From: Candidatus Heimdallarchaeum aukensis
Lineage (GTDB): Archaea; Asgardarchaeota; Heimdallarchaeia; Heimdallarchaeales; Heimdallarchaeaceae
Assembly (NCBI GenBank): GCA_021513695.1
Contig: CP084166.1
Span: forward strand, 2,976,001-3,040,000
Length of the DNA: 64,000 nucleotides
Direction of reading: 5' to 3'
In this document: positions 6,425 to 41,974 of the stretch, in pieces
How positions within the stretch are numbered: the stretch's first letter is position 1
Layout: each line of letters begins with the position of its first letter
Position numbers and translations under genes: made by a program
Notes under the pieces: model-generated
The model's database searches: none
What the model saw: the letters and a program-made list of their open reading frames with translations, nothing else
Told to the model about the DNA's origin: nothing

Positions 6425-7066
6425 ATGTCTTCGACAATTGTAAATCTATATCTGGGAGGATTAACTTTTAATAAGATTAAAGTTGATGAAACTGTTTCAA
6501 ACAAGTCAGTCACTTTACTATCATGGTTCGCTTTGTTTATTTACATGCTGCTTGAAGCAATTTTTTCAGTAATCGCGGGTAAACCTGCAGGACACAGTGC
6601 TTTTGCTCGTTATACAAACCTTTCTGGTTTTTGGTTATTTTTTGCTGTAATTGTTAGCTCGTTAATAGCTACAGTTGTTTTTGCAGCAATCTTATTAGGA
6701 CTCTTCAAACTATTCGAATTGACATGTGTCCTTATAAGACGATTATTTAAAACTGAGAAAGAAAGCAAAGAAGAAGTTAAAAAGATTAGTTTGACTTTTA
6801 ACGGTTTTATTAGAGTTGTTGCTGTGGGTGTAGTTTGGAAATATATTTCAGCAATAGGCGTTCTTTTCAGTGGCACCCCAAAAACTATAATAACGGGGCT
6901 AGGATACTTTATTTCACTATTTTGTATTGGCTTTGCATCAAAACGTTATAGTAAAAAATCAGTTTTTGTTGTAATCATAATTATGATTCTAGCATTCTTC
7001 ATAAGTTTCGCTTTAGGTGTTGTATGGAGCGACATATTAGAAAAGCTATTAGGTCTGACAAAATAA
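6425..7066 (+). CDS. polytopic membrane protein (possibly Yip1-domain-like), hypothetical
   Basis: 213 aa with 5-6 TM helices. No recognisable catalytic motifs. Confidence 0.5.
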   Translation: MSSTIVNLYLGGLTFNKIKVDETVSNKSVTLLSWFALFIYMLLEAIFSVIAGKPAGHSAFARYTNLSGFWLFFAVIVSSLIATVVFAAILLGLFKLFELTCVLIRRLFKTEKESKEEVKKISLTFNGFIRVVAVGVVWKYISAIGVLFSGTPKTIITGLGYFISLFCIGFASKRYSKKSVFVVIIIMILAFFISFALGVVWSDILEKLLGLTK

Positions 7067-7121
7067 TAGAAAAAAAAAAGATATTTTTCATTCTACCTTT
7101 TTTAATACTTTTTTCTTAAAG

Positions 7122-7231
7122 TAGTACTTCCGAATTATCTCAAAAAGTATGAATTGAGAACACGCCAATGATAGTATGAACTCCTATAATTTTAACCTAT
7201 AGAAATCAGTCAACTTATTGCGGAAGTACTA
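7122..7231. mobile_element. MITE-like non-autonomous element, copy A (110 bp, 11-bp perfect TIRs TAGTACTTCCG/CGGAAGTACTA, flanked by 6-bp direct repeat TTAAAG)
   Basis: Seen directly: TIRs at 7122-7132 and 7221-7231; TTAAAG at 7116-7121 and 7232-7237. Internal palindrome ctataattttaacctatag. 100% identical (reverse-complemented) to 41507-41616. Confidence 0.7.
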
Positions 7232-7254
7232 TTAAAGAAAAAAAATTGTGAAAA

Positions 7255-8265
7255 CTAAATGTTCTCTCTAAGATCAATTATATGCTCTGAAGAAGGACCT
7301 GTACCGATTAAACTCACTTTAACCTTTGTTTCTTGTTCTACTCTGTCAATGAACTCTTGAGCTTCTCCTTTAATTTGATCAATTGATGTTGCTCCTTTCA
7401 ATTCAGGGAAAACTATATCAAATTTAGTTAAAGCAATCTGTGTAGCTCCATTTAGTCTTACTGACTTTTTTGCGAGTTCAAAATTAAATGGCGCTGCTCT
7501 TCTAGGACGACCTGTTACTGCTCCGTATTCTACCCATCCTCTTTTTTTCATTTCGTCTAAAGAGAGCTCTCCTGGAAGTTCTCCTTCTCCAACTCTAGTT
7601 ATAAAAGCTTTCATTACTACTAACACTTCGTCAACTTTTGTTGGGCCCACGCCCAGATCAGAACAAATACCAGCAGCACAAGTGTCGTGTGAAGTGACAT
7701 AAGGATATGAACCATGATAGAGAGATAAAAAGGCAGCTTGACTTCCTTCTGCAATAACACTTTCACCTGATTCAAGAACTTTGTTTATTTCAAAACTTAC
7801 ATCAGTTAAGTATTGTTTTAATTCAGGGATATCTCGAGCTAACTTTAATGTTCTCATTGCTCTGTCCATGTTAGCTGGTCCACATCCACTTCCAGTTGTC
7901 CCAATTTTTCCCGATAAATGTTTGTCTTTTGTATCCATATCAATGTGCTTTTGTTCAATTATTCCCGATTGAAAGTCTACTTTTAGTCTATCTTCAGTTT
8001 TAGTATTCTTTATCTCTTGAAGTAGAACAGTAGGATTTACAAGCACTCCTGCTCCTATAAGCAATTTTGCTTTGTTGTTAACAAAGCCAGAAGGAACCAT
8101 TCTTAACTTGTATTCTATCCCTTCATGTTGTATAGTATGTCCAGCATTGGGTCCTGTTCCCGCTCTAGCAATTATTGAAGGTTCATCTTTTATTGCCAAA
8201 TAGGAACAAATTTTTCCTTTTCCTTCGTCTCCCCAAAATCCTCCAGCTATGATAGTAAATGTCAT
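7255..8265 (-). CDS. purA: adenylosuccinate synthetase, short archaeal type
   Basis: N-terminus GGFWGDEGKGKICSYL (P-loop GDEGKGK), …GTGPNAGHT…, 336 aa as in archaeal PurA. Confidence 0.9.
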   Translation of the reverse strand: MTFTIIAGGFWGDEGKGKICSYLAIKDEPSIIARAGTGPNAGHTIQHEGIEYKLRMVPSGFVNNKAKLLIGAGVLVNPTVLLQEIKNTKTEDRLKVDFQSGIIEQKHIDMDTKDKHLSGKIGTTGSGCGPANMDRAMRTLKLARDIPELKQYLTDVSFEINKVLESGESVIAEGSQAAFLSLYHGSYPYVTSHDTCAAGICSDLGVGPTKVDEVLVVMKAFITRVGEGELPGELSLDEMKKRGWVEYGAVTGRPRRAAPFNFELAKKSVRLNGATQIALTKFDIVFPELKGATSIDQIKGEAQEFIDRVEQETKVKVSLIGTGPSSEHIIDLRENI

Positions 8266-8439: not shown

Positions 8440-9009
8440 TTGATTATGTCAGCATTTGGTGTCGTCAAAATTGTACTACTTGGAGACTATGCTGCAGGAA
8501 AAACAACTCTAAAAAGAAGTTTTATGGGTCTTCATTTAGATGAAGTATACTTAAGCACTTTAGGAGTTGATCTAGCTTCTTATCATTTCGTTGATGATAA
8601 CTTTGATTTAAAGTATCAAATATGGGATCTCGGAGGGCAACCAGAATTTAAGACTATACGTGTTCAACAATATAAAGGTACAGAAGGAGGGTTACTTGTT
8701 TTTGATAAAGCAAGAGTTGAGACTTTCGAACATTTATCTGATTGGTTAGAAGAGCTTAGTAGCTCAATCTCTAATCGTGTTCCTATTTTCTTAATAGGTA
8801 ATAAATCAGATCTTCTTTCTCATGAAGAAAATGCTGAAATGGATAGAAAGGCAGAGAAATTTATAGAAGATAATCAAAATACTTACCCCGAGATTGATCT
8901 TAAAGGTTATTTTGCAACATGTGCTTTAACTGGTGAAAACGTTAGAGAAGCTTTTTTAGCTCTTGGTAAAGAAATAATTAAAATAAAGAGCGATAGAATG
9001 CTCATTTAA
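8440..9009 (+). CDS. Rab/Ras-like small GTPase (eukaryote-signature, Asgard-type)
   Basis: G1 GDYAAGKT; switch I YLSTLGVD (Rab TIGVDF-like); G3 WDLGGQ; G4 GNKSD; G5 TCALTGENVREAF (compare Rab ETSAKTGENVEEAF). No C-terminal CAAX/CC prenylation motif. Confidence 0.85.
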   Translation: MIMSAFGVVKIVLLGDYAAGKTTLKRSFMGLHLDEVYLSTLGVDLASYHFVDDNFDLKYQIWDLGGQPEFKTIRVQQYKGTEGGLLVFDKARVETFEHLSDWLEELSSSISNRVPIFLIGNKSDLLSHEENAEMDRKAEKFIEDNQNTYPEIDLKGYFATCALTGENVREAFLALGKEIIKIKSDRMLI

Positions 9010-32233: not shown

Positions 32234-32995
32234 TTATAAACTATCTACCAGATAAGTGTTGTTTTTGAAAGCTACAATCCTTACTTTTTCTCCTTTCTTG
32301 AATTTATCAAAAGGACTGAAAGTTTTAGCATGCAGTTTTGTTAAACCTATATTTTGCCCTAAATCAACGACAATTATTCCTCCTTTTACATCTACAGAAA
32401 CGAAAACCTCACCTATCTCCCCAACAAGCTGTTCTCCTTTTGGAACAATAATTGAAGTAGTAGCAGAAAGTTTTCTCCATGTTTTAGATAAAATCCAAGC
32501 TAAAAAGTAGGGAACAACAAAAACACTTACTATACGTACGATTCTTAAACTAAGATCATCAGAAGAAATTCGAAGTGTTGAAACCCCTAAAATACCAAAG
32601 ATTAGGAAATAGGTAGACATTAATAGGAATAAAGGAGCTGAAGAACGAGTAATATCAATACTTTCAACTACGGCTTTCGAAACTTTATGAGGGGTAAGAT
32701 CAGAGACGTCTCCACTTTCACTGCTGACTTCATGGTCACCTACATCATGATCTCCAATATCATGGCTCACATCATGTCCCCCTATGTCATGATCTCCTAC
32801 ATCATGGCTTATGTCATGCCCTCCAATATCATGATCTCCTATATCATGGCTTACATCGTGTCCTCCAAAAGCCTCTGTAATATTTTCAATGTTGAGAACA
32901 AATGAAAGAATTACTAACAATGCTCCACTAATTAATAAAGCTAAAGCTATATTCCATAGTATTGTTTCAAAATTAAGTAAAAATTCAGGATTCAA
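32234..32995 (-). CDS. NfeD-like membrane protein (SPFH partner) with His/Asp-rich pentapeptide repeat insertion
   Basis: TM helices plus C-terminal OB-fold (VGEIGEVFVSVDVKGGIIVVDLGQ…VRIVAFKNNTYLV). Upstream and co-oriented with the flotillin gene. Confidence 0.7.
   Translation of the reverse strand: MNPEFLLNFETILWNIALALLISGALLVILSFVLNIENITEAFGGHDVSHDIGDHDIGGHDISHDVGDHDIGGHDVSHDIGDHDVGDHEVSSESGDVSDLTPHKVSKAVVESIDITRSSAPLFLLMSTYFLIFGILGVSTLRISSDDLSLRIVRIVSVFVVPYFLAWILSKTWRKLSATTSIIVPKGEQLVGEIGEVFVSVDVKGGIIVVDLGQNIGLTKLHAKTFSPFDKFKKGEKVRIVAFKNNTYLVDSL
32705..32869 (-). repeat. about 10 tandem degenerate 15-nt units encoding an HD[IV][GS][DG] pentapeptide repeat inside the NfeD CDS
   Basis: Protein stretch GGHDVSHDIGDHDIGGHDISHDVGDHDIGGHDVSHDIGDHDVGDHEVS; DNA periodicity catgatctcctacatcatggc… visible. 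Confidence 0.6.
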
Positions 32996-39752: not shown

Positions 39753-41357
39753 TTATTGTAGAAGTTCAACAACTTCAGCTTTTACTAATTTATCTGAGAG
39801 AGCATCAGTTATTTTTACTCTAGCTACCCTTTTTAGTATATCACTTTCGAATTCAATACTTACAGCAGGACCTGCGTTAATGAAATATCCAATGTAAGTA
39901 TTCTTTCTTTTGAAATCTTTCTCTGCGATAATAACAGTTTCTGTTTTTCCAATTAATTCCTTCTTTTTCTCCTTATTGAATGAAATAATAGTCTGTTTCA
40001 ATTCTTCTCGCTTTTTATGTAAAAGATATCTTTCAGGAGGAGAAGAAACATTCATTTTAGTAAAAGGGCTGTTGGGAAGAGCTAAATATTTGTATACTGT
40101 AACTTTATCTGCAACGTTCCATAAGCGTTTTCTTATTACATCAGTTGTTTTTTCAAGGGCTGATACTGTTTCCCCTGGTAAGGAATGAATAAGATAAATT
40201 TGTGGTTTCAATCCTGCTTCTGTTAAGAGTTTAGCTGCTTTCATTGCTCTTTCAGGGGAAGAAGGTCTTCCTAATTTTCTACTTAATTCTTCATCAAAAG
40301 TCTCACAACCTATAGAAATGGGAGTACCTGGTAGGTATTTGCCTAGAATTTCAGCTACTTGTTTATTTATTAGAGTAGGTTTAACATTTTCAATTATAAT
40401 AGATCTATTGGGTTTCTCATCTCTTATTTCTGCTAGTTCAGAAAGTAGTTGTTCTATCGCTTGTATATTAGGTTCTGGATAAGATGGAGAAACAACTTGA
40501 CCATCTTTCCCTCTCATATAGTCCAAAAAACCAGGAGCAGAAAGAACTATCCTATTTACCCCTAGATCAAATAATTCTCTTATTTCTTTTACGATTAATT
40601 CATGAGGACGACTGATTGGAGCTCCGAAAGTTGTGGGGACACTGCAAAACCCACAACCTGGTGGAATATTAGCAGGACAGTCTATTAGCTCTACTTCTCT
40701 CTCTACTGAGTCAGTACAAAATCCGCAATCAGGGCATAAACCTTTATCTTGTACTAATTCTCCTCTTATAAAGTTTGAACATCCTCTGACAGTTTCCACA
40801 TAAACTCTAGCAAACCAATATTCTTCATAGTCAGTTATAACTTTAGTAGAGGGGTTGTAATTAAAAATATAATATCCTTTTGCCTTCTTCTCTTTTATAA
40901 GATAAGTTTTTCCTATTTTTTCTATCTCAAACTGTTCTCTGTTGTTTTCAATGAAACTTAGAATTTCGAATTTGTTCTCAATCAATTTGTCAAGAAATAA
41001 TTCTCCTTGTCCTTGAACAGCTGCTGTGACTTTTAATTGAGAAACGAAATCAACATCAGAAGTAACAGGTCCACCAACGAAGATTTTTGGTAGCATTACT
41101 TCTGTTTTTAACATTCTTACTATTTCTATTACAGCGATTTCGTCAACACTCATTCCACTAATTAAAAAAGCATCAAAGGAAGTTAAATCATAGTTGTGAT
41201 TTCTAGAGAGTAAATTTTCAGCTCTAATTACCTTAGAGTAAATGTTTTTGTATTCACATATACCAGCAAGTAATCTCGGTCCTACTCCAATTACATCTCT
41301 AGTAAATTTTCTTTTTCCATCATTTGAAGCAAGAGCATCAACAATTAGAATTTTCAC
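39753..41357 (-). CDS. MiaB-like/radical-SAM-like protein with C-terminal TRAM domain and non-canonical cysteine clusters
   Basis: N-terminal flavodoxin/MTTase-like domain; central TIM-barrel-like region with CPDCGFC and CPANIPPGCGFC but no CxxxCxxC; C-terminal TRAM-like beta-barrel. Confidence 0.55.
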   Translation of the reverse strand: MKILIVDALASNDGKRKFTRDVIGVGPRLLAGICEYKNIYSKVIRAENLLSRNHNYDLTSFDAFLISGMSVDEIAVIEIVRMLKTEVMLPKIFVGGPVTSDVDFVSQLKVTAAVQGQGELFLDKLIENKFEILSFIENNREQFEIEKIGKTYLIKEKKAKGYYIFNYNPSTKVITDYEEYWFARVYVETVRGCSNFIRGELVQDKGLCPDCGFCTDSVEREVELIDCPANIPPGCGFCSVPTTFGAPISRPHELIVKEIRELFDLGVNRIVLSAPGFLDYMRGKDGQVVSPSYPEPNIQAIEQLLSELAEIRDEKPNRSIIIENVKPTLINKQVAEILGKYLPGTPISIGCETFDEELSRKLGRPSSPERAMKAAKLLTEAGLKPQIYLIHSLPGETVSALEKTTDVIRKRLWNVADKVTVYKYLALPNSPFTKMNVSSPPERYLLHKKREELKQTIISFNKEKKKELIGKTETVIIAEKDFKRKNTYIGYFINAGPAVSIEFESDILKRVARVKITDALSDKLVKAEVVELLQ

Positions 41358-41506
41358 AAAAGAATAGTTTTTTCACTTTTTAAAAAGATTAGTTTTGTTA
41401 AAATAATTCAGAAATTAGAATTGAATTGCTTTTAAAATATTCACACTGCTTTTAAAAAAATATATAGAAAAAAAATATTGTTTAATTGTTGTTTTTTTGT
41501 ATATTA

Positions 41507-41616
41507 TAGTACTTCCGCAATAAGTTGACTGATTTCTATAGGTTAAAATTATAGGAGTTCATACTATCATTGGCGTGTTCTCAATTCATACTTTTTGAGA
41601 TAATTCGGAAGTACTA
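41507..41616. mobile_element. MITE-like element, copy B (inverted relative to copy A; flanked by 6-bp direct repeat ATATTA)
   Basis: TIRs 41507-41517 and 41606-41616; ATATTA at 41501-41506 and 41617-41622; internal sequence 100% identical to the reverse complement of 7122-7231. Confidence 0.7.
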
Positions 41617-41662
41617 ATATTAACAAAAAAATATAAAAAGGATTGGAAGTAACTTTTTATGA

Positions 41663-41974
41663 ATGGAAGAAGATTTGTGTCCAGTATGTGGTTTACCTCA
41701 AGACCTTTGTGTCTGTGAGGGGTTAGCAAAAGAAGTGCAGATAATTAGAGTTTATTTAGAAAAAAGAAGATACGGCAAGAACTATACGTGCATATCAGGG
41801 ATTGATCCAAAAGAAGTCGACTTGGGAAATTTAGCGAAAAAACTTAAGACCCAACTTGCTTGTGGAGGAACGTACAAAGATGGAAGAATTGAGTTGCAAG
41901 GAGATCATAGATTTAAAATAAAAGATTTACTTGTAAACGCAGGTTTTCCCGCGGAAAATATAGAAGTGCAGTAA
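41663..41974 (+). CDS. translation initiation factor aSUI1 (eIF1 homologue)
   Basis: N-terminal CPVCG…CVC zinc knuckle, then the SUI1 fold (…ISGID…QLACGGT…); 103 aa. Confidence 0.85.
   Translation: MEEDLCPVCGLPQDLCVCEGLAKEVQIIRVYLEKRRYGKNYTCISGIDPKEVDLGNLAKKLKTQLACGGTYKDGRIELQGDHRFKIKDLLVNAGFPAENIEVQ

Follow-up and report, generated by a model that had tools for sequence, protein, structure and literature searches.

MITEs (miniature inverted-repeat transposable elements) derived from insertion sequences (ISs) are commonplace, and the elements SM1-SM4 of Sulfolobus, said to have been described by Redder, She and Garrett in 2001, are reportedly archaeal examples with traits similar to those set out here. 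In Halobacterium, the MITEHsal elements and ISH2 are short, non-coding and multi-copy, they share the terminal inverted repeats (TIRs) and the target-site duplication (TSD) length of a resident IS, and they are mobilised in trans; in the table of these elements, the ISH3 class has no MITE (PMC7002104). We describe a MITE that looks like these elements but differs from known archaeal MITEs in its host, an Asgard archaeon of the Heimdallarchaeia, in its ISH3-like partner and in an unusually sharp target motif. Two copies lie in a 64,000-nucleotide stretch of Candidatus Heimdallarchaeum aukensis PM71 (contig CP084166.1, positions 2,976,001 to 3,040,000; hereafter the window). The element very probably arose by internal deletion of an ISH3-like IS of ~1.22 kb, is mobilised in trans and integrates at preferred targets with a 6-bp TSD. 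It is newly seen in an Asgard archaeon: our literature search found no paper describing a MITE from one, and the genome paper counts repeats and transposase families in a text without MITEs, inverted repeats or target sites (PMC8813620). What lifts the family slightly above the routine is a sharp, oriented, promoter-proximal target preference together with repeated hits at the same sites.

The element is 110 nt long, and the copy at 7122-7231 on the plus strand equals that at 41507-41616 on the minus strand with 0 mismatches by matching within the window sequence, for an expectation of 0 chance matches in dinucleotide-preserving shuffles. Both are bounded by a perfect 11-bp TIR, TAGTACTTCCG, which with one mismatch allowed has four matches in the window versus 0.4 expected, all of them at the four element ends. 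Copy 1 is flanked by TTAAAG (7116-7121 and 7232-7237) and copy 2 by ATATTA (41501-41506 and 41617-41622); since neither repeat can be extended to 7 bp, the TSD is 6 bp. A first-pass annotation made from the letters alone had reported two identical, oppositely oriented copies with perfect TIRs and a distinct TSD each, and every one of these observations proved exact. Its remaining descriptions held in part: the internal palindrome exists as CTATA-N9-TATAG, but its stem is only 5 bp; no protein is encoded, but a transposase start codon and the codons after it are kept (7176-7202); and both copies are intergenic, but copy 1 lies between convergent 3′ ends and not in a promoter region. With 110 bp, a nine-codon remnant (stop included) in place of a transposase gene and perfect 11-bp TIRs at all copies, the element falls well within the usual size of a MITE (below about 500 bp). 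Repeat search and low-stringency BLAST detected no further full, partial or degenerate copy in the window. The two insertions, at what we call site 1 and site 2, are laid out as follows.

7098-7115 (+): left arm of the site 1 target motif, a TATA-like TTTTTAAT followed by a T-run, from the 24-site position matrix
7116-7121: left copy of the copy 1 TSD, TTAAAG, identical to 7232-7237
7122-7231 (+): MITE copy 1, 110 bp; its left end corresponds to the end of the parent IS where the 5′ part of the transposase gene lies
7122-7132 (+): left TIR of copy 1, TAGTACTTCCG; all MITE and IS copies in the family end in this 11-mer
7176-7202 (+): remnant of the transposase gene start, ATG plus seven codons plus TAG, reading MNSYNFNL*, from alignment to the IS left end
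7213-7214 (+): approximate internal-deletion junction between the IS left ~92 bp and right ~18 bp, from the MITE-IS alignment
7221-7231 (-): right TIR of copy 1 (CGGAAGTACTA on the plus strand)
7232-7237: right copy of the copy 1 TSD, TTAAAG
7238-7245 (+): right arm of the site 1 target motif, an A-run, from the position matrix
41501-41506: copy 2 TSD, ATATTA, on the side of the radical-SAM gene
41507-41616 (-): MITE copy 2, 110 bp, with its left end toward SUI1
41507-41517 (+): TIR at the MITE-right end of copy 2
41606-41616 (-): TIR at the MITE-left end of copy 2
41617-41622: copy 2 TSD, ATATTA, on the SUI1 side
41625-41639 (+): A-run resembling a B recognition element (BRE) plus TATAAAAA box, the putative SUI1 promoter, from the sequence and the family-wide spacing

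To find further copies, we scanned a collection of species-representative genomes, which leaves out H. aukensis itself, with an IUPAC pattern fitting both element ends. The only match in this collection was CP084167.1 (21 tiles), the genome of the sister species Ca. H. endolithica PR6; both genomes were published as circular and share 88% average nucleotide identity (ANI) (PMC8813620). PR6 carries 20 copies of 110 bp that lie 0-6 nt from the window copy, one of them being identical to it. Perfect 6-bp TSDs flank 16 of the 20, one copy has a 7-bp TSD, and the remaining three show a one-mismatch repeat, a shifted repeat and an unreadable flank. A metagenome scan added about 10 further copies in JGI metagenome contigs, among which a 108-bp variant with a more IS-like sequence (MITE-B, contig L034) stands beside the 110-bp form (MITE-A). 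Most metagenome copies likewise have 6-bp TSDs, with an occasional 5 or 7, so that the two window copies, the 20 in PR6 and the ten or so in metagenomes make up a dispersed family with a nearly constant TSD length.

In short-read assemblies from SRR15988954 and related runs, contigs break off within the MITE on each of the four flanks of the window copies, as is expected of a dispersed repeat. The 34,327-bp Logan contig SRR15988954_7995 exactly spans the interval between the copies (7231-41507) and ends inside both; the contigs that hold the four flanking genes all end inside the MITE as well, with no empty or spanning allele among them. The first-pass annotation had itself raised the alternative that a segmental inverted duplication made the two copies, to which an assembly artefact may be added. 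Just two copies in the window, inverted and 100% identical, are what such an event would leave, but the identity runs precisely up to the TIRs and no further, the two copies are flanked by different 6-bp TSDs, over 30 additional copies with TSDs of their own occupy unrelated positions in other genomes and contigs, and both junctions are reproduced in independent short-read assemblies. We consider the chance of a duplication or artefact to be negligible. Viral contigs were also scanned for the element: the left end was not found in them, and the right end gave one 18-nt match only (L058 11430-11447, IMG/VR UViG_3300006927_000185), which we judged to be a chance match in coding-looking viral sequence with the second TIR absent. 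The viral contigs scanned give no evidence of a viral vector for the family.

The longer, transposase-encoding element with the same TIRs, which the first-pass annotation had thought worth seeking, lies in PR6 at L026 2447-3663. This parent IS is 1217 bp long, has identical 11-bp TIRs and a perfect TSD (TTCTAT), and contains an open reading frame (ORF) of 355 amino acids (P0001) that starts at element position 55. Another pair of these TIRs bounds 1230 bp in a PR6 tile (L020 4231-5460, TSD GAAAAT), where the transposase gene is frameshifted; P0001 was found via conceptual translation of this copy and is already annotated as 'transposase' in H. endolithica (GenBank). The ends of the MITE align to the ends of the IS. 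Positions 1-92 are 77% identical to the IS left end in L026, including the ATG at position 55 and the next codons, the last 18-25 nt are 92% identical to the IS right end, and in the alignment the remnant MNSYNFNL* is homologous to MNNSNFSLLK, the N-terminus of the related transposase P0412. Close to its left end the IS has GTCAAAAGTT and close to its right end GTCTAAGTT, and the MITE has one hybrid copy of the two. Since the junction falls within this imperfect direct repeat, the comparison suggests that slippage or recombination between GTCAAAAGTT and GTCTAAGTT produced the internal deletion.

The same junction is common to MITE-A and MITE-B, which thus stem from one deletion event; a 543-bp derivative in the lineage of contig L044 is a separate internal deletion. 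Two Logan contigs from unrelated runs (L027 426-1647, SRR7048225; L028 1-1222, SRR7048228) contain a 1222-bp IS with the same 11-bp TIR, and the transposase in L027 (P0002) is only 47-48% identical to P0001. That the TIR is identical despite this divergence indicates that the ends are conserved across the clade. For this 1222-bp element, one contig consists of the IS alone, and the TSD there reads 5 bp (TTTAT).

P0001 has a Pfam match to DDE_Tnp_1, and its best NCBIfam match is ISH3 (NF033541; 134 bits, E 5e-39), with the IS4, IS1634 and IS1380 models far behind. Residues D128, D204, E300, Y293 and R296 are invariant in the alignment and K307 was read directly in P0001 (RWGIETSYRLLK); the IS4-superfamily signature Y-(2)-R-(3)-E-(6)-K is present as Y293-R296-E300-K307. 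ISH3 elements, an archaeal family of the IS4 superfamily of DDE transposases, are about 1.2-1.5 kb long in ISfinder. The partner IS is like them in its length (1217-1230 bp), its single ORF, which begins at position 55 and stops 16 nt short of the right end, its Y-R-E-K residues and its archaeal host, and unlike them in that only 11 bp of its TIR are perfect. Relatives are few: among 1.84 billion representative proteins there are five at E<=1e-30, several of them fragments, and 217 at 1e-10. ISH3 is the best match of all the nearest full-length relatives, each of which scores below the curated cut-off of that model; a distant relative, P0003, passes it with 251 bits. The transposase clade is thus small and outlying, and we describe the partner as a divergent ISH3-like IS (IS4-superfamily DDE) and not as a certified ISH3 member.

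A 90% cluster around this transposase includes the 381-residue form P0412, carried by two PR6 accessions, in which the frame ends 16 nt from the right end. The same cluster includes a 342-residue H. aukensis member, P0413 (UJG40423.1), known here from the protein alone, in which the catalytic residues are present. Since P0413 belongs to the cluster, the window genome encodes a cognate transposase; in the window itself, tblastn gave no match to the family transposase. Both suppositions of the first-pass annotation on this point are borne out, namely that a transposase encoded elsewhere recently mobilised the element and that it inserted a non-autonomous MITE with a 6-bp duplication, for which TIRs, TSDs, dispersed copies and a parent IS have all been found. 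That the family is undescribed applies to the MITE and its properties but not to the transposase family, which already stands as 'transposase' in GenBank. A resemblance to Tc1/mariner and Stowaway elements had also been noted, and the element does share with Stowaway, Tc1/mariner and IS630 MITEs its small size and TIRs that begin with TA. We rejected this affinity on two grounds: the TSD is a variable 6 bp and not TA, and the transposase matches the DDE_Tnp_1, ISH3 and IS4 models only, so that it is not of the IS630/mariner type. A further candidate for comparison is the ISC1217 group (ISNCY, Sulfolobales), with a size of ~1.2 kb, a TSD of 6-8 bp and ends that begin with TAG, which the partner IS may resemble.

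Several points weigh against deriving the MITE from an ISH3-like IS that mobilises it into chosen targets. Transposition itself is deduced here from sequence comparison. With 134 bits, P0001 does not reach the ISH3 cut-off of 225 bits, and the TSD is 6 bp as compared to the 4-5 bp expected of ISH3, with 5 bp given by the Halobacterium ISH3 elements (PMC7002104). As annotated, P0413 is 39 N-terminal residues shorter than the 381-residue form and may be defective. A same-species empty allele was not found for either window site among metagenome contigs and contigs carrying the flanking genes. Finally, the target motif described below could come partly from the survival of neutral insertions in compact intergenic regions instead of from enzyme preference.

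The question of whether the family moves in H. aukensis is informed by the comparison of the two species. Between H. aukensis and H. endolithica, MITE-A copies differ at 0-6 of 110 nt (95-100% identity), no PR6 insertion site matches either window site, and no site is common to both species among those examined. Against an ANI of 88%, this degree of identity without a shared site points to activity after speciation, and the family has probably been exchanged between co-occurring Heimdallarchaeum species. It is conceivable, and of the alternatives weighed here the one that we would discount least, that the family, though genuine, no longer moves in H. aukensis, its copies being the product of a past burst or of gene conversion and its resident transposase defective. 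This would fit the shortened N-terminus of P0413, the sole H. aukensis cluster member seen (342 versus 381 amino acids), the frameshifted IS copies in PR6 and the decay of the 543-bp derivative in the L044 lineage. However, 100% identity over 110 bp at two sites, shared with an identical PR6 copy, indicates very recent movement, occupancy differs at shared sites between populations that are 98-99% identical, and PR6 has two copies of the full 381-residue ORF. The family is probably still active in H. aukensis, and we regard its immobility there as unlikely.

To characterise the target, 24 unique sites were restored to their pre-insertion sequence and aligned in the orientation of the element. 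T is found at position -6 in 24 of 24 sites, at -5 in 23 and at -4 in 18, and at the mirror positions A is found at +11 in 18, at +12 in 23 and at +13 in 23. The resulting core, TTT-N4-[6 bp]-N4-AAA, is symmetric about the hexamer, as expected for a two-ended transpososome. An additional box is found on the MITE-left side only, with the form TTT(-16 to -14)-WW-AAA(-11 to -9). A log-odds matrix trained on the 22 non-window sites was then run along the window, stripped of its MITEs, on both strands, approximately 127,000 positions. It ranked site 2 first with 22.3 bits, the top target score among all sites, and placed site 1 23rd by its exact position and 4th as a locus; only about four loci in the 64 kb attain the median score of the real sites.

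The orientation of the element relative to its neighbours is also non-random. For the MITE-left neighbour, transcription runs away from the element at 22 of 29 sites (binomial p = 0.008), and for the MITE-right neighbour at 13 of 31. The start codon lies 36-66 bp from the MITE-left end in 13 of 22 cases, with a median of 46, a spacing that places the TATA-like box ~27 nt upstream of the start codon. By archaeal promoter geometry, this box would be the BRE/TATA promoter of a leaderless mRNA. In many cases, the A-run of the right arm falls on the oligo-T terminator of the preceding gene, read on the other strand, and a neighbouring 3′ end is 5-67 bp away at 11 sites. In the window, copy 2 lies between divergent starts, those of a radical-SAM gene (39753-41357, minus strand; product UJG40796.1) and of SUI1 (41663-41974, plus strand). 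The SUI1 A-run begins at 41625, 3 bp past the copy 2 TSD, and the centre of the TATAAAAA box is ~27 nt upstream of the ATG at 41663, where archaeal promoter geometry would make it the SUI1 promoter. Copy 1 lies between the 3′ ends of a membrane protein gene (6425-7066, plus strand) and purA (7255-8265, minus strand; product UJG40766.1, which like that of the radical-SAM gene is an exact protein match). The motif is thus also present at sites without an adjacent gene start, such as site 1. This favours a preference of the enzyme over selection as the sole cause; selection may still make the pattern sharper.

Occupancy in relatives provides a second view of the target, since every site that can be compared between related genomes differs in its occupant. 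At site 2, contig L022 (JGI 3300033141 contig Ga0366833_1075312), which matches the window at ~98% identity and comes from a near-conspecific population, carries the left end of a full-length-type IS at precisely the junction of the window MITE; its positions 1-224 are at least 224 bp of IS, including 56 transposase codons, and are 97.8% identical to the PR6 IS in L026. The L044 lineage (GCA_054387635.1), ~84% identical to the window, has the decayed 543-bp IS derivative (1906-2460) in the orthologous ATATTA hexamer upstream of SUI1, in the orientation opposite to that of the window MITE, with decaying TIRs TAATACTTCCG and CAGAAATACTA and the TSD ATATTA/ATATCA. The same arrangement is seen in eight other contigs, including L045-L049. 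Further pairs are found between PR6 and metagenome populations. PR6 contig L019 and L034 agree in position and orientation but hold MITE-A and MITE-B, respectively. The remaining pairs are flipped and come from PR6 and populations 98-99% identical to it: L020 2151-2260 and L041 1429-1538 share position and TSD, and L018 243-352 differs from L043 656-765 and L033 4878-4987 by a 1-nt shift, with the TSD AAAGAA versus AAGAAA. At site 1, the lineage of contig L056 has exactly 116 bp (110 + 6) fewer between collinear flanks, in locally diverged sequence, which may be a cross-species empty site. The reconstructed empty allele of site 2 had no exact match in metagenome contigs.

Differences in occupant and orientation could instead arise in place, by inversion through TIR recombination or by ectopic gene conversion. 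The interior is flipped within the same position and TSD in L020 and L041, and both L019/L034 and the window/L022 share junctions while their family members differ, as this would predict. However, homologous recombination would have very little to work with in a TIR of 11 bp, and site 2, which has been occupied in three ways, is the site with the highest target score. Moreover, the 1-nt offset between the flipped L018 and L043 is explained only by two independent insertions into one hot spot, so that in-place inversion fails for at least this pair. For the other cases we hold change in place to be unlikely, slightly less probable than immobility in H. aukensis, and a few very hot sites that are repeatedly hit are the best account of the differing occupants.

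The variable occupancy also bears on whether the element is a host-encoded functional unit kept by selection, be it a small RNA gene, a module bound by a regulatory protein or a terminator/promoter cassette. The intergenic location at a stereotyped distance from promoters, the high conservation across species at 88% ANI and a predicted fold more stable than that of shuffled sequence (z-score -3.2) are features that such a unit could have. However, the stability of the fold is mainly TIR pairing, an Rfam scan of the element and its flanks at a permissive E-value gave no match, occupancy varies among close relatives, and TSDs, TIRs and descent from an IS, down to a dead transposase start, are hallmarks of a mobile element. 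A host function of the family is therefore very improbable, though individual copies could have been domesticated.

Taken together, these results are best explained by the following mechanism. The MITE keeps the left ~92 bp of the IS (TIR, 5′ leader and first transposase codons) and the right ~18 bp (TIR). Immobile alone, it would be recognised in trans at the shared 11-bp TIRs by the DDE transposase of full-length members, with cut-and-paste chemistry likely by analogy with the IS4 superfamily, and staggered target cuts 6 bp apart would be repaired into the 6-bp duplication. The transposase would strongly favour the AT-rich, quasi-symmetric TTT-N4-[6 bp]-N4-AAA with a TTTWWAAA box 9-16 nt outside the hexamer on the MITE-left side, a choice that may be made from DNA sequence and shape alone. 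Because of this preference for TTT/AAA and a TATA-like box, the usual landing would be directly upstream of the BRE/TATA of a leaderless gene, with the left end toward the gene and often just past the oligo-T terminator of the preceding one.

Among IS4-superfamily elements, IS10/Tn10 and IS231A have hot-spot targets with a symmetric consensus centred on the duplicated bases, to which the flanks contribute, and they re-hit the same bonds. The present family is like them in its symmetric target consensus and repeated hits at the same phosphodiester bonds, and unlike them in its AT-tract consensus (TTT-N14-AAA), in an asymmetric TATA-like arm tied to orientation and in the coincidence of the target with archaeal core promoters. 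Among eukaryotic promoter-proximal elements, Ty3 targets Pol III start sites, and Tf1 and mPing insert upstream of genes. The functional analogy to these is insertion at a fixed place relative to the core promoter with coding sequence spared; there is no homology, and the preference here may be read from DNA alone rather than through tethering to a transcription factor. A bolder reading takes the core promoter as the landing pad itself, entered in a fixed orientation ~4 bp upstream of the BRE and ~19 bp upstream of the TATA centre, perhaps by reading the TBP/TFB-bent complex, with super-hot sites re-hit and exchanged between co-resident Heimdallarchaeum species. We consider this reading doubtful, more so than the alternative of change in place; if true, it would give archaea a counterpart to the promoter targeting of the Ty3/Tf1 type.

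The family has several practical consequences. The MITE breaks short-read assemblies at every copy, and it is a marker of the probable recent exchange of mobile DNA by two species of Heimdallarchaeum. Its target preference could serve, in an uncultivated lineage, as a computational marker for leaderless genes' BRE/TATA promoters, and as a tractable system for target-site choice by an archaeal DDE transposase. Chromosomal inversion could take place between the identical inverted copies, which lie 34 kb from each other; relatives have the gene order of the window at both sites, and so the interval between the copies is not inverted.

Two further observations concern the window outside the insertions. 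An Arf/Ras-family small GTPase gene (8440-9009, plus strand) is followed by a gene at 9103-10029 (plus strand), whose product has a precomputed Pfam match to CCDC47 (PF07946). This match appears in contigs L024 and L025, which correspond to the window, and is 'faint' in the orthologues in L055 and L056; it may be compositional, as the protein has a long, Lys/Glu-rich tail. At 32709-32866, the repeat search (family D2) identified three tandem 42-nt units of 76% identity, which are probably an intragenic peptide repeat.

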